A DNA stretch of 64,000 bases, from positions 1 through 64,000 of the IMG/VR virus record IMGVR_UViG_3300023184_000038, one strand, 5' to 3'. The first letter of the stretch is position 1, and each line of letters starts with the position of its first letter. A program made the position numbers and the translations under genes. This document shows, piece by piece, positions 1-3,294 of this stretch. The notes under the pieces are model-generated. The model did not search any database and had not been told where the DNA came from. It saw only the letters and a program-made list of their open reading frames with translations. This DNA is from a virus.

Positions 1-65
1 TCTATCGGTTAGGACACTAGGTTTTCAACCTGGTAAGCGGGGTTCAACTCCCCGTAGCAGTACCA
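1..65 (+). tRNA. tRNA-Glu(TTC), 5' end cut by window edge
   Basis: Anticodon arm ctagg-ttttcaa-cctgg, T arm cgggg-ttcaact-ccccg, ends ACCA. Confidence 0.85.
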
Positions 66-154
66 TATAAAAACATACTTACCAATCGCCCTCTTAGTAA
101 AGGGAGATAACGACTAAGCGTTGAAGACAGGTTTAAAAGTATGTTTCTATATGG
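63..154 (+). ncRNA. tRNA-CCA-anchored stem cassette E1 (structured RNA of unknown function)
   Basis: CCATATA-A-AAACATACTT pairs with AAGTATGTTT-C-TATATGG. Two internal hairpins have complementary loops (cttagt/actaag). Confidence 0.6.
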
Positions 155-271
155 TTGTTCTAAAGGCCGAGCCAGGACGCATTAAATGGACCTTGAAGGT
201 CAGCCCGCGATTGTGGATGCATGTCAAAGGGCAAGGCGGAGAACATTAAATGAAGACGGCCGCTTCAGCCA
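153..271 (+). ncRNA. Putative structured ncRNA in a tRNA-like slot
   Basis: ggttg/cagcc terminal stem ending CCA, ggccg/cggcc, gacct-tga-aggtc and gccc/gggc stems. GC-richer than the spacers, with no tRNA arms. Confidence 0.45.
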
Positions 272-280
272 TTCTTTTTT

Positions 281-355
281 GGTGCGTTCATATAACGGTC
301 ATTATCTCGGATTGTCTATCCGAAGACGGGAGTTCGACTCTCCCACGCATCGCCA
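281..355 (+). tRNA. tRNA-Asp(GTC)
   Basis: Cloverleaf, tcgga-ttgtcta-tccga, CCA encoded. Confidence 0.93.
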
Positions 356-420
356 AGTTTTGTTGTTTGCAGTGAGTCGGTCTCCGATAAACATTAAGTT
401 GAGATTGCAACAACAAATTT
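355..420 (+). ncRNA. AAGTTTTG-type stem insert after tRNA-Asp
   Basis: tttgttgtt(t)gcagt pairs with attgcaacaacaaa, with internal tcgg-tct-ccga hairpin. Confidence 0.4.
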
Positions 421-430
421 ATTTTCATAT

Positions 431-516
431 GGATGTGTAGGAAAACTGGTAACCCCAGAAGACTGTAAATCTTCCGCCTCACGGCTCTGTTGGTTCGACT
501 CCAACCGCATCCACCA
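431..516 (+). tRNA. tRNA-Tyr(GTA)
   Basis: gaaga-ctgtaaa-tcttc, variable arm, CCA. Confidence 0.93.
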
Positions 517-520
517 AGTT

Positions 521-614
521 TTGCGTATAGTGTAATGGTAGCACCAAGAAGTCCGAGACACGAAAGTGGAGTAGGCACCCAATGCTTGGACGAGGTTCGA
601 TTCCTCAACGCAAT
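521..614 (+). ncRNA. tRNA-like RNA with a 36-nt insert replacing the anticodon loop (pseudo-tRNA or intron-bearing tRNA)
   Basis: Acceptor ttgcgt/acgcaa, D arm tagtgtaatggtagcac, stem ccaag/cttgg around 36 nt, T arm gagg-ttcgatt-cctc, no CCA. Confidence 0.6.
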
Positions 615-623
615 CTATTTTTT

Positions 624-698
624 GGGCTGATAGTGATAATGGGAGCATAGTGGCTTTGCAAGCCTCGGGTCGGGGTTCGATCCCCCGTCGGTCCACCA
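624..698 (+). tRNA. tRNA-Ala(TGC)
   Basis: Loop tttgcaa, G3:U70 pair, CCA. Confidence 0.92.
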
Positions 699-923
699 AG
701 TTTTGTTAGAGTGTTAGCAAGAGAAAGTCACGCTATCTAGGTTTGTTCGAACAACCGAAATAGTAGAAGGCAATGGGTTCGACTCCCACCTGGGCACGTA
801 GTGTCCATGGGCAGAAGGTTGCAAGCTGGACAAGTATCCCAAGTGACGTACCGAGTCTCGGCCTAGGCTTTACGTAAAGGGTGAATGGTGCTTATAATGT
901 GGTAGCACTACTCTAACAAATTC
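699..923 (+). ncRNA. ~220-nt multi-stem ncRNA with a T-loop hairpin (AAGTTTTG-type insert)
   Basis: tttgttagagt/actctaacaaa closing stem, gtcac/gtgac, tggg-ttcgact-ccca, tgggcac-gta-gtgtcca, tggtgct/agcacta. Confidence 0.55.
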
Positions 924-930
924 AATTTAT

Positions 931-1004
931 GCGGGGTTCGTATAGTGGTAATACCTTAGCCTTCCAAGCTAAAGCGAGGAGTTCGATTCTCCTACCCCGC
1001 TCCA
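931..1004 (+). tRNA. tRNA-Gly(TCC)
   Basis: ttagc-cttccaa-gctaa, CCA. Confidence 0.95.
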
Positions 1005-1012
1005 AAAATTAT

Positions 1013-1104
1013 AGTGAGTTGGATGAGTGGCTTAAATCAGCAGTTTGCTAAACTGCGGGGTGCCGAAAGGTGCCCCGAGGGTTCGAATCCCTCACTCACT
1101 GCCA
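1013..1104 (+). tRNA. tRNA-Ser(GCT)
   Basis: gcagt-ttgctaa-actgc, long variable arm, GCCA. Confidence 0.95.
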
Positions 1105-1110
1105 GTTTAT

Positions 1111-1185
1111 TCCCTAGTAGCTCAGCGGTAGAGTAGTTGGCTGTTAACCAATTGGTCCGTGGTTCGATCCCACGCTGGGGAGCCA
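1111..1185 (+). tRNA. tRNA-Asn(GTT)
   Basis: gttgg-ctgttaa-ccaat, GCCA. Confidence 0.95.
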
Positions 1186-1204
1186 AAATATAACAAAAAT
1201 AGTT

Positions 1205-1279
1205 GGGACGTTAATTCAGCGGTAGAAGGTCTCCTTTACACGGAGAAGGTCGGCAGTTCGAACCTGTCACGTCCTACCA
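1205..1279 (+). tRNA. tRNA-Val(TAC)
   Basis: tctcc-tttacac-ggaga, ACCA. Confidence 0.93.
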
Positions 1280-1395
1280 TAGATAAACACATTCAACGGC
1301 AATCATAACGATACCTGGCAACTGGACGCAGGGGCTATCGCAAAGAGTAGGGCACTACCGCCGTAAAGTCAGGAAACGAATGTGTTTTTCTATGG
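1277..1395 (+). ncRNA. tRNA-CCA-anchored stem cassette E2
   Basis: CCATAGA-T-AAACACATTC / GAATGTGTTT-T-TCTATGG. Cargo has crossing helices acggc/gccgt and cctggc/gtcagg (potential pseudoknot). Confidence 0.6.
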
Positions 1396-1418
1396 TTATA
1401 TATTATGATAAATATTAT

Positions 1419-1497
1419 CGCGGAGTAGGGGAGTCTAGCCGTCCCCGGAAGTCTCATAAGCTTCAGATCGCAGGTGCGAATCCTGCCTCCGCATCCA
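1419..1497 (+). tRNA. tRNA-Met(CAT), initiator-like
   Basis: C1:A72 mismatch and ctcataa loop, but lacks the three G-C pairs typical of the fMet anticodon stem. Confidence 0.85.
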
Positions 1498-1503
1498 TTC
1501 TTT

Positions 1504-1957: not shown

Positions 1958-2048
1958 GGAAGGCCAACCCAACTGGTGATGGGATCTGTCTTGAAAACAG
2001 CCGAGCGTTAATAGCGCCTTTAGAGTTCGACTCTCTAGTCTTCCGCCA
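1958..2048 (+). tRNA. tRNA-Ser(TGA)
   Basis: ctgt-cttgaaa-acag, long variable arm, GCCA. Confidence 0.92.
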
Positions 2049-2053
2049 AAAAT

Positions 2054-2127
2054 GTATCTCTAGTGTAATGGCAGCACTATGTTCTCCAAAAGCATCAGTC
2101 AAGGTTCGAGTCCTTGGAGGTACGCCA
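2054..2127 (+). tRNA. tRNA-Trp(CCA)
   Basis: atgtt-ctccaaa-agcat, GCCA. Confidence 0.92.
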
Positions 2128-2134
2128 AAGTTAT

Positions 2135-2211
2135 ATGAGGATTCCAGAGTGGTCTAATGGCGCAGTCTGCAAAACTGTTGGTCGTGGGTTCAAATCCCAC
2201 TCCTCATTCCA
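2135..2211 (+). tRNA. tRNA-Cys(GCA)
   Basis: gcagt-ctgcaaa-actgt, U73 discriminator. Confidence 0.92.
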
Positions 2212-2218
2212 ATATCAT

Positions 2219-2292
2219 GCGGGATTAGTTTAATGGTCAAACGAAACCTTGCCAAGGTTTAGTCAGGAGTTCGATTCTCCTATCCCGCTCCA
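2219..2292 (+). tRNA. tRNA-Gly(GCC)
   Basis: aaacc-ttgccaa-ggttt, TCCA. Confidence 0.94.
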
Positions 2293-2299
2293 AATAAAT

Positions 2300-2391
2300 G
2301 CCAGCGAGACTTGGAAGTCAGAGAGGTCTTATAAGCCTTTTAGCGCCAGATTAGCGTTCTTGAGAGGGTTCGATTCCCTCCGCTGGTACCA
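2300..2391 (+). tRNA. Atypical tRNA with TAT anticodon (nominal Ile), tiny D arm and long variable arm
   Basis: Acceptor gccagcg/cgctggt, D arm gact-tgga-agtc, agaggt-cttataa-gccttt, V region over 20 nt, T arm gaggg-ttcgatt-ccctc. Confidence 0.75.
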
Positions 2392-2412
2392 AATATAGTT
2401 ATCGTTCACTGT

Positions 2413-2488
2413 TGGGGTGTCGCCTAGAGGCCTAAGGCACTGGTCTTTGAAATCAGTATCATGAGTTCGAATCTCATCTCCCCTGCCA
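2413..2488 (+). tRNA. tRNA-Gln(TTG)
   Basis: ctggt-ctttgaa-atcag, GCCA. Confidence 0.9.
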
Positions 2489-2495
2489 TGCATTT

Positions 2496-2569
2496 GCCCC
2501 TTTAGTTAAAAAGTATAACACCGTGCTGATAACGCGGAGTCGCAGGAGCGTTACCTGCCGGGGGTACCA
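2496..2569 (+). tRNA. tRNA-Ile(GAT)
   Basis: ccgtg-ctgataa-cgcgg, atypical T loop agcgtta, ACCA. Confidence 0.82.
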
Positions 2570-2645
2570 GCCGCTTTTGTAGATATGGTTATTACGCTAG
2601 TTTGAAGCACTAGAGAACCAGGATCAAAACCTGGAGGCGGCACCA
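2570..2645 (+). tRNA. tRNA-Phe(GAA)
   Basis: ctagt-ttgaagc-actag, acceptor gccgctt/aggcggc, atypical T loop. Confidence 0.8.
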
Positions 2646-2652
2646 TTTATAT

Positions 2653-2726
2653 GCTCTTATAGTAAAGTGGTATTACACGGCTTTGGTAAAGCCGAGTTCC
2701 AAGTTCAATTCTTGGTAAGAGCACCA
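2653..2726 (+). tRNA. tRNA-Thr(GGT)
   Basis: cggct-ttggtaa-agccg, ACCA. Confidence 0.92.
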
Positions 2727-2740
2727 ATCAGGAGAAAAAT

Positions 2741-2851
2741 ATGAGATATGTAAAAATCGCTGCTCCTTGGTTGTTCCGTGCATATATTGTATGGAGCGTA
2801 TGTGCCGATTTATTTTTAATTGGCTTGGCTGTATGGTATTTTTTCTTTTAA
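2741..2851 (+). CDS. Small hydrophobic peptide (36 aa), putative single-pass membrane protein
   Basis: AGGAG SD 6 nt before ATG, MRYVKIAAPWLFRAYIVWSVCADLFLIGLAVWYFFF*, below the ORF-track cutoff. Confidence 0.55.
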   Translation: MRYVKIAAPWLFRAYIVWSVCADLFLIGLAVWYFFF

Positions 2852-2910
2852 GAAATACAGATGGCAAACGTCAAAAAGTATCTAGTCCTGTCACCCACTT
2901 TAAATAAAGG

Positions 2911-2939
2911 TTGACAACAAACCTAAATTGTTGTATAAT
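2911..2939 (+). promoter_or_regulatory. sigma70-type promoter
   Basis: TTGACA-17 nt-TATAAT upstream of the second tRNA block. Confidence 0.8.
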
Positions 2940-3056
2940 AGATTTTTAAACGAAAGAGATACTATATGAAACGAAAATCTCGTAAACTATAGTGTCAATC
3001 GTAGACCCCGTATATGGTCCATGGTTGGCACATTAAAGACAATTAATATGCACAAC

Positions 3057-3131
3057 CTACGCTAAACTTTGATGGTGAAGTCCGGCCTCTTAAGCCGAGA
3101 GAACTGAGTTCAAGTCTCAGAGCGTGGACCA
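3057..3131 (+). tRNA. tRNA-Lys(CTT)
   Basis: cggc-ctcttaa-gccg, acceptor ctacgct/agcgtgg, ACCA. Confidence 0.85.
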
Positions 3132-3137
3132 TAATAT

Positions 3138-3211
3138 GGGATCATAATTCAAAGGTAGAATAGTCGGCTTTTAACCGATCTATCCCGGTTCGAGTCCGGG
3201 TGGTCCTACCA
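3138..3211 (+). tRNA. tRNA-Lys(TTT)
   Basis: gtcgg-cttttaa-ccgat, ACCA. Confidence 0.93.
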
Positions 3212-3294
3212 TAGATAAACACACTAGGCCTGGTCAAAAGCCATCGCGGGTATAGTGCCTTCCGTGCCGCGGACTTGAGTGTGTTTTTCTATGG
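3209..3294 (+). ncRNA. tRNA-CCA-anchored stem cassette E4
   Basis: CCATAGA-T-AAACACACT / AGTGTGTTT-T-TCTATGG. Cargo tggt-caaaa-gcca and cgcgg/ccgcg. The closing GG is the 5' end of the next tRNA. Confidence 0.6.

Follow-up and report, generated by a model that had tools for sequence, protein, structure and literature searches.

The window analysed here comprises the first 64 kb (64,000 nucleotides) of a 143,665-nt virus record (IMG/VR record IMGVR_UViG_3300023184_000038) that is about 41% complete. It opens with a tRNA array on the + strand (positions 1-3533, about 27 tRNA genes), within which lie four elements, E1 to E4, that share a terminal stem and enclose four different RNA segments, here called cargos. 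The tail-sheath protein is nearest to those of jumbo myophages of the PA5oct/Paride type, lake and other freshwater samples are the main origin of near-identical RNA and DNA, and the source is an uncultured freshwater jumbo phage. Related arrays carry transfer-messenger RNA (tmRNA) tags such as ANDERFALAA, which we take to indicate betaproteobacterial hosts. The elements, the tRNA genes adjoining them and two further features of the array are as follows (cuts and products are those predicted for RNase III).

1..65, + strand: tRNA-Glu(UUC), 5′ end cut by the contig start (Rfam tRNA model at 1-62, 37.9 bits, 5′ truncated)
63..154, + strand: E1 cassette, arms 63-79 and 138-154; predicted cuts after 69 and 149; predicted product 70-149 (80 nt)
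80..137, + strand: E1 cargo, a three-way junction in which two hairpin loops kiss; 24 homologs
153..271, + strand: non-tRNA RNA of about 120 nt that begins on the closing GG of E1, ends in CCA and occupies the place of a tRNA; homologs in loci L101, L214, and L095; no Rfam match
1205..1279, + strand: tRNA-Val(UAC), upstream of E2 (tRNA gene calls)
1277..1395, + strand: E2 cassette, arms 1277-1293 and 1379-1395; predicted cuts after 1283 and 1390; predicted product 107 nt; pseudoknotted cargo 1294-1378
1672..1748, + strand: tRNA-Arg(UCG), upstream of E3 (tRNA gene calls)
1746..1871, + strand: E3 cassette, arms 1746-1762 and 1855-1871; predicted cuts after 1752 and 1866; predicted product 114 nt; multi-helix cargo 1763-1854
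1870..1945, + strand: tRNA-His(GUG), whose G-1 and G+1 are the closing GG of E3
2911..2939, + strand: sigma-70 promoter, perfect (12/12), upstream of a Lys-Lys-E4-Met-Arg-Leu block
3138..3211, + strand: tRNA-Lys(UUU), upstream of E4; the tRNA that most often anchors a cassette in the family
3209..3294, + strand: E4 cassette, arms 3209-3225 and 3278-3294; predicted cuts after 3215 and 3289; predicted product 74 nt; cargo 3226-3277
3293..3368, + strand: tRNA-Met(CAU), whose G1-G2 are the closing GG of E4

A sequence-only reading of the window had placed the four elements at these coordinates, each starting on the CCA of a tRNA (Glu, Val, Arg, and Lys, respectively), and this is where we find them. 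The CCA of the truncated tRNA-Glu(UUC), at 63-65, supplies the first three bases of E1; the gene is complete in the near-identical locus L101. Folding confirms a stem of 7 bp, a mismatch at position 8 (A.C in E1, U.U in E2 and E4, positions 8-9 in E3), and then 9-10 bp. The compensatory changes that had been quoted between copies are present, and in E3 and E4 the closing GG does consist of the first bases of the next tRNA. In the context of tRNA, element, and following tRNA, the pair probabilities of the stem are near 1, and the discriminator base usually adds one pair. Compared with shuffled sequences, the whole elements have folding z-scores of -5.6, -5.1, -4.5, and -3.6 (E1 to E4); folding energy gives no decision on the strand. 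The cargos are 58, 85, 92, and 52 nt long, with a GC content of 0.41-0.62 against 0.36 for the genome, and we found no further copy of the element in the 143,665-nt contig.

The element belongs to a large family in uncultured phages. Pattern scans gave more than 200 viral loci and at least 120 metagenome loci; the resulting numbers are lower bounds, and family counts are those among the matches listed. A first set of stems held 405 copies (333 distinct) in 168 cargo clusters, and the full set at least 606 distinct copies in at least 230 cargo clusters, from which the Chao1 estimate is about 450 clusters. All but one of the 405 copies (404) lie within 1 kb of a tRNA gene. Anchoring on a CCA proves to be usual but not required: 264 of the 405 start on the CCA of a called tRNA, 124 overlap the 5′ end of the next tRNA, and 93 do both, while others follow the 3′ end of a GOLLD RNA, a boxA-like operon leader, or another cassette. 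GOLLD RNAs occur in the same arrays (L192:4801-5261, L172:2699-3162, L141:311-775), two of them with an embedded tRNA. The anchors are skewed toward tRNA-Lys(UUU) (143 in the first set, where 143 of 176 genes for this tRNA carry a cassette), tRNA-Gln(UUG) (37), and tRNA-Glu(UUC) (32). These are the wobble-thiolated tRNAs, targets of several anticodon nucleases; the skew may reflect shared ancestry or search bias.

The contents of the stem are exchanged readily. The 33 Lys-Met slots hold 20 different cargo clusters, the cargos of E1 and E2 are each found behind five or more different tRNAs, and cassettes often stand in tandem without an intervening tRNA. At orthologous positions, the variation that the sequence-only reading had proposed to look for is indeed seen: compared with the window, the close relatives L101 and L214 have added, replaced, or tandem cassettes. 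The stem also occurs empty. A search for shortened forms turned up, in 19 loci, bare hairpins of 37-44 nt with unrelated loops of 3-10 nt that link one tRNA to the next, and some of them occupy a Gln-Ser slot that is loaded in relatives. Cargo lengths are accordingly bimodal, with almost none between 10 and 29 nt. Because cargo-free stems join tRNAs, in some cases in slots that relatives have filled, these data argue that the stem is probably selected as a processing signal in its own right.

Outside this set of arrays we found little. The E2 core matches two of 185,579 Genome Taxonomy Database (GTDB) genomes (the stem itself was not scanned), both on short contigs of metagenome-assembled genomes with the same kind of tRNA array and cassette, which are probably mis-binned phage. 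Among cultured phages, BLAST searches with the array, E2, and the joined arms gave only tRNA or chance matches, the joined-arms search being insensitive, and the tRNA regions examined in RsoM2USA and V45v66 contain no CCA-anchored stems. We found neither a description of the family in the literature nor an Rfam entry for it; a catalogue of 10,006 viral RNA candidates (PMC10690425) lay outside this comparison.

The form of the stem is that of an RNase III site. For the Escherichia coli enzyme a weak consensus has been described, WNAGWGNNCWUNNN^NAWGNNCWCUNW (PMC4357697), and the minimal substrate has a canonical U-A/U.G distal box and a minimal helix of 11 bp (PMC1540722). We laid the consensus on both arms with the geometry of 2-nt overhangs, which gives 20 informative positions. 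Register 7 is the best in 321 of 329 stems, with a mean of 16.5 matches out of 20 against at most 11 in any other register. In this register the cuts would fall 4 nt past the CCA of the tRNA and 5 nt before the end of the stem, leaving 2-nt 3′ overhangs, and the outer proximal box consists of the C-A of the tRNA and the following U. Position 2 of the proximal box (columns 3 and 10) is never G-C or C-G in the 333 distinct stems. In the distal box, column 17 is U-A in 319 of the 333, and column 16 is U.G in 202 and C-G in 79; the box is canonical in E2 and E3, and E1 and E4 have C-G. Columns 8-18 are paired in most copies apart from the mismatch at column 8, E1 to E3 being paired through column 18 and E4 through column 17. 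Between columns 18 and 19 pairing drops from 86% to 55%, and this is where the minimal 11-bp helix counted from the cut comes to its end.

Since the search patterns fixed much of the stem sequence, we made three less biased tests. When elements were retrieved by their cargo only, 90 of 90 lay in a stem by a permissive criterion. Among 68 cargo-retrieved stems, variability peaks in column 8, which lies at the predicted cut (56% paired, 2.5 bits); column 15, a W in the consensus, flips only between A-U and U-A, column 11 has the consensus G in 21, and position 2 of the proximal box shows four exceptions. In 61 CCA-anchored stems taken with no sequence filter, the best register was 7-9 in 48, compared with 26 +/- 3.5 after shuffling of pairs, and when such divergent stems were collapsed to 33, it was 7-9 in 24 compared with 13 +/- 2.5; the divergent stems exceed all 300 shuffles in this respect. 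These stems, of which there are at least 33 (for example in L021, L036, L071, and L185), follow tRNA-Glu(UUC) in many cases and enclose RNAs of up to 250 nt. Because they fit the RNase III consensus at registers 7-9, the cassette principle extends beyond the E-type family.

Scoring of single half-sites gives a scale for these matches. In phage T7, positions 1468, 5887, and 6448 are at the top of 6,400 positions (9/10). We take these to be R0.5, R1.1, and R1.3, which are without annotation in the T7 record. The 3′ arms of E1 to E4 score 8, 8, 8, and 9 out of 10, where 0.34% of the genome background reaches 8 or more, and the 3′ arm of E4 is the highest-scoring half-site in window positions 1-3600. 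None of five carrier phages that are 98-100% complete has an RNase III gene, so the cutting enzyme would be that of the host.

At the level of sequence, then, the stem is conserved as an RNA helix, fits the consensus in a single register, and exists with or without cargo. The modular, RNase III-type scaffold with exchangeable RNAs that had been suggested for the window gains support from the consensus register, the pairs of the distal box, the pattern of substitutions, the cargo-free copies, and the swapping of cargos. We consider it probable (roughly 0.7) that the shared stem is a site for host RNase III, used as an expression cassette within the phage tRNA precursor. Transcription, some of it at least from the sigma-70 promoter at 2911-2939, would yield the array as a long precursor, and the stem would form beside the acceptor end of the upstream tRNA, whose C-A, with the next U, would supply the outer proximal box. 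Host RNase III would then cut behind stem position 7 and again 5 nt short of the end of the stem (in the window, after 69/149, 1283/1390, 1752/1866, and 3215/3289), and one such double cut would both separate the neighbouring tRNAs and free a small folded RNA. The upstream tRNAs would keep a 4-nt trailer for trimming by exonucleases, and a 3-nt leader for RNase P would be left on tRNA-Met and on G-1 of tRNA-His. The free RNAs, of 80, 107, 114, and 74 nt for E1 to E4, would be closed by a helix of 10-11 bp with a 2-nt 3′ overhang that should protect their ends. Trimming by exonucleases and RNase P and protection of ends by a terminal helix are established parts of bacterial RNA processing. Phages would gain, lose, and swap the contents of the loop, probably by recombination between the arms or the flanking tRNA genes.

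Several points weigh against processing by RNase III. Single stems beat pair-shuffled controls at P values of only 0.008-0.11, the consensus being weak and AU-rich, and the stem copies are related rather than independent. Since the consensus was built largely from T7 sites, the T7 control gives only a scale, and the consensus is in any case that of E. coli, which is not the source of the host enzyme. Both E1 and E4 have C-G instead of U.G in the distal box, the inner proximal box is mostly A-U where E. coli prefers G-C, and roughly half of the bare hairpins are limited to 10 bp on the inner side of the cut, one below the E. coli minimum. Columns 12-13, which are free in the consensus, are strongly conserved, and this could reflect a second binder. 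The cuts and mature ends are predictions from sequence, the RNA data being assembled contigs, and the tests bear on the stem and on the cargo folds.

As for the cargos, the statement that they are individually structured holds by covariation and not by folding energy. The energy of the cargo alone is no better than chance (z-scores of -0.7, -1.3, -1.9, and +1.0 for E1 to E4), and we therefore tested cargo structure on homologs. In 24 homologs of the E1 cargo, 95.8% of cells are paired, and three of the four kissing pairs show changes on both sides. The E2 cargo has 34 distinct homologs with 95.4% of cells paired, nine pairs changed on both sides, and three pairing variants of its pseudoknot; the nested helices of E3 have 94.3% of cells paired in 20 homologs and 13 pairs changed on both sides. 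The 12 distinct homologs of the E4 cargo vary little, and covariation is weak. These counts ignore relatedness, and the structures were drawn from the same sequences. The alignments indicate that the cargos of E1 to E3 have conserved folds of their own that are under selection.

None of these folds corresponds to a family that we could name. In line with the sequence-only reading, which recognised no named family, a comparison with Rfam 15 places no family on E1 to E4 at E values up to 10; there is also none on the cassettes of 16 loci at E values up to 1, and none among the best 150 matches of a wider scan, which extend down to 56 bits. We considered two candidates by structure, and neither resemblance holds. 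In pistol ribozymes the pseudoknot is followed by an invariant GCG, and the loop of P2 contains catalytic residues; in E1, the G is found in 11 of 24 homologs, the expected loop has 0-2 nt, and there is no Rfam match. The SAM-I riboswitch core has a GCAAC/GGUGC P3 loop with an invariant U and a fixed order of helices; in E2, the U is found in three of 34 homologs, the order of helices differs, and Rfam again gives no match (a permuted model was not searched). For a possible role as mimics of type III antitoxins or as other anti-defence RNAs, what can be seen is that E1 and E2 contain loop-loop or pseudoknot pairings. With regard to an antisense role, only three of 606 cargos match tRNAs on the minus strand, and E1 to E4 have no significant match elsewhere in their own genome. 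For circularisation, we found no Rnl2-type ligase or RtcB in four complete carriers or in this record (Rnl1 was not searched), and no circular junction among the metatranscriptome contigs, which are assembled and do not resolve ends.

Four metatranscriptome contig sets cover the array and hardly extend over the downstream genes, although such contigs give no ends, strand, or level; one contig matches positions 1-178 exactly. There is no sign in these contigs of very abundant E1 to E4 RNAs, for which contig depth is a poor measure.

A different division of labour would leave the stem as an RNase III site for tRNA maturation and have the cargos act in cis, as ligand or protein sensors that tune cleavage, and with it the freeing of the flanking tRNAs, and are then degraded. 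Bare stems, in which processing would need no cargo, the aptamer-like three-way junction of E1 with its kissing loops, and the lack of any sign of very abundant E1 to E4 RNAs (though contig depth measures this poorly) would all suit such a role. We nevertheless think it unlikely, since with every cargo the stem has a pairing probability close to 1 and no rival fold is predicted, a single cargo follows many different tRNAs, tandem cassettes commonly lack an intervening tRNA, and a few tRNAs would hardly need at least 230 unrelated cargos as their sensors. The stem might otherwise be an uncut handle for a protein, as in a particle like that of Ro60 and Y RNA, or for a phage protein or a non-cutting RNase III, with ends made by RNase P or RNase E and exonucleases. 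Conservation of sequence beyond the needs of pairing, columns 12-13 included, together with the conserved mismatch, is what a bound handle might show, and T-loop-like motifs, found in 17 of the 168 cargo clusters (about 10%), recall bacterial Y RNAs. However, in 93 of 405 copies the stem overlaps the mature ends of both neighbouring tRNAs, and therefore an intact handle and mature tRNAs cannot share one transcript; the stem also varies most where the cut is predicted, and its variation keeps to the W positions of the consensus. Nor do Ro60 and Y RNA themselves appear: no Ro60 (TROVE) gene was found in the five near-complete carriers or in this 41% fragment (a host Ro60 was not searched for), and the best scores for the Y RNA family YrlA (RF02553), 17.5-27.7 bits against a cut-off of 69, fall on tRNAs and not on cassettes. 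We judge a handle to be quite improbable.

Far less credible is a miniature inverted-repeat DNA element, of the miniature inverted-repeat transposable element (MITE) or attC kind, that targets tRNA genes and carries an exchangeable filling, the other explanation offered by the sequence-only reading. It would account for the terminal inverted repeats, the several copies per genome, the TA beside the CCA, and gain and loss between close relatives. The reading is removed because the empty site keeps both arms; moreover, stem-less spacers after tRNA-Lys(UUU) show no footprint, copies are confined to tRNA arrays and occur nowhere else in the contig, the interiors are unrelated where copies of a MITE would share theirs, and the arms covary and use G.U pairs, as RNA does. 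The arm sequence also differs from what we take to be the attC core.

If host RNase III is the processing enzyme, the question becomes what the released RNAs would do. Given release, it is conceivable, at somewhat less than even odds, that the cargos are trans-acting decoys or inhibitors of host functions, most likely of anti-phage defence. We favour this role from the pattern of diversity: an open repertoire with fast turnover between close relatives, many pseudoknots, and a partly tRNA-like character. A fuller version is correspondingly more doubtful: a plug-in system in which host RNase III acts in a Drosha-like manner on a standard stem, and several hundred anti-defence RNAs (decoys, antitoxin mimics, or sponges for signalling nucleotides) are swapped like anti-CRISPR genes.

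The array holds other RNAs besides the cassettes. The -35/-10 pair of the promoter at 2911-2939 is visible in several relatives. Downstream of it (window 2911-3056) come a ribosome-binding site and a Lys/Arg-rich mini-open reading frame (mini-ORF; 2966-2992, MKRKSRKL), and the stop codon of the mini-ORF runs into a conserved hairpin directly before tRNA-Lys(CUU). The unit occurs in 101 loci (with MKRSGKR, MKRGKL, and similar peptides, codon 2 being nearly always AAA), and in 98 of them a tRNA-Lys comes next. Through coupling to translation, it could sense how much tRNA-Lys is available and thereby control the tRNA-Lys block. Positions 699-926 encode a 225-nt multi-helix RNA with a T-loop, which has 73 BLAST matches among the loci, no match in Rfam, and none by BLAST in cultured phages. 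In lake metatranscriptome X2, contig depth reaches about 7,000 over this RNA, with adapter-ended pieces at 717-725 and 862, and these contigs hint at an abundant separate RNA. At 520-620 lies a tRNA-like body that has a larger domain in place of its anticodon loop; it has no full-length homolog among the loci. The hairpin at 357-420 has a second type of stem; L101 has a 112-nt E-type cassette in this slot, and a related interior sits inside an E-type stem in L184. An atypical tRNA with a long variable arm and a UAU anticodon (2300-2391) is called Ile by ARAGORN and scores only on the tRNA-Sec model. A group I intron lies inside a tRNA gene at L054:4094-4286. Downstream of the array in the window are genes for a PstS-like phosphate-binding protein (5425-6420) and an HNH protein (6533-7093).

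If the cut is real, the stem tags the exact ends of hundreds of new structured phage RNAs, and the role of non-tRNA RNAs in phage tRNA clusters, such as T4 RNAC/RNAD and GOLLD, could be tested by screening a library of defined products. The stem would, moreover, separate tRNAs in a compact way, with the tRNA ends themselves as part of the RNase III site, and would offer a natural scaffold from which to express stable small RNAs in bacteria. Should the cargos be anti-defence RNAs, they would form a large repertoire that is invisible to protein-based scans.

Several known systems resemble the cassette in part. Bacterial and phage Y RNAs (YrlA, RF02553), which act with Ro60, share a terminal stem with an irregularity, a location in tRNA arrays and, for some cargos, T-loops; unlike them, the cassette has no Rfam match and its carriers no Ro60, and most cargos lack a tRNA-like domain. 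The RNAC and RNAD of phage T4 (PMC3014915, PMC9697503) are likewise small non-tRNA RNAs from a phage tRNA region whose role is not known, but they are two fixed RNAs for which these papers describe no shared carrier stem, a distinction drawn from published descriptions and not from sequence. GOLLD and ROOL (RF02032; PMC12990946) are structured noncoding RNAs of phage tRNA arrays, and cassettes in the arrays studied here often come after the 3′ end of a GOLLD; GOLLD itself, however, is about 800 nt long, forms one family, and lies outside this stem. The T7 sites R0.3-R1.3 and the minimal muR1.1 RNA (PMC1540722, PMC4357697) resemble the stem: they have proximal boxes and a U-A/U.G distal box on a helix some two turns long, which is irregular at the cut and has 11 bp to one side of it, and their half-site scores are similar. 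There, too, a phage uses host RNase III on a polycistronic transcript, as is proposed for the cassette. In contrast, the T7 sites are short-loop hairpins between mRNAs, whereas the cassette site is built in part from a tRNA CCA and the 5′ GG of the next tRNA, and its loop holds a structured RNA, the predicted product of release. In the stalks of 16S and 23S rRNA, two arms pair around a functional RNA, and a double cut by RNase III frees it from an operon that also carries tRNAs. The cassettes have the same paired arms around an RNA, and some that come first in their operon follow a boxA-like sequence; each rRNA stalk has one fixed cargo, whereas the near-invariant stalk of the cassette holds hundreds of unrelated cargos of 30-230 nt, or none. 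The chemistry is ordinary; the architecture of the cassette is undescribed, and the repertoire of RNAs that it carries is large and unexplained.

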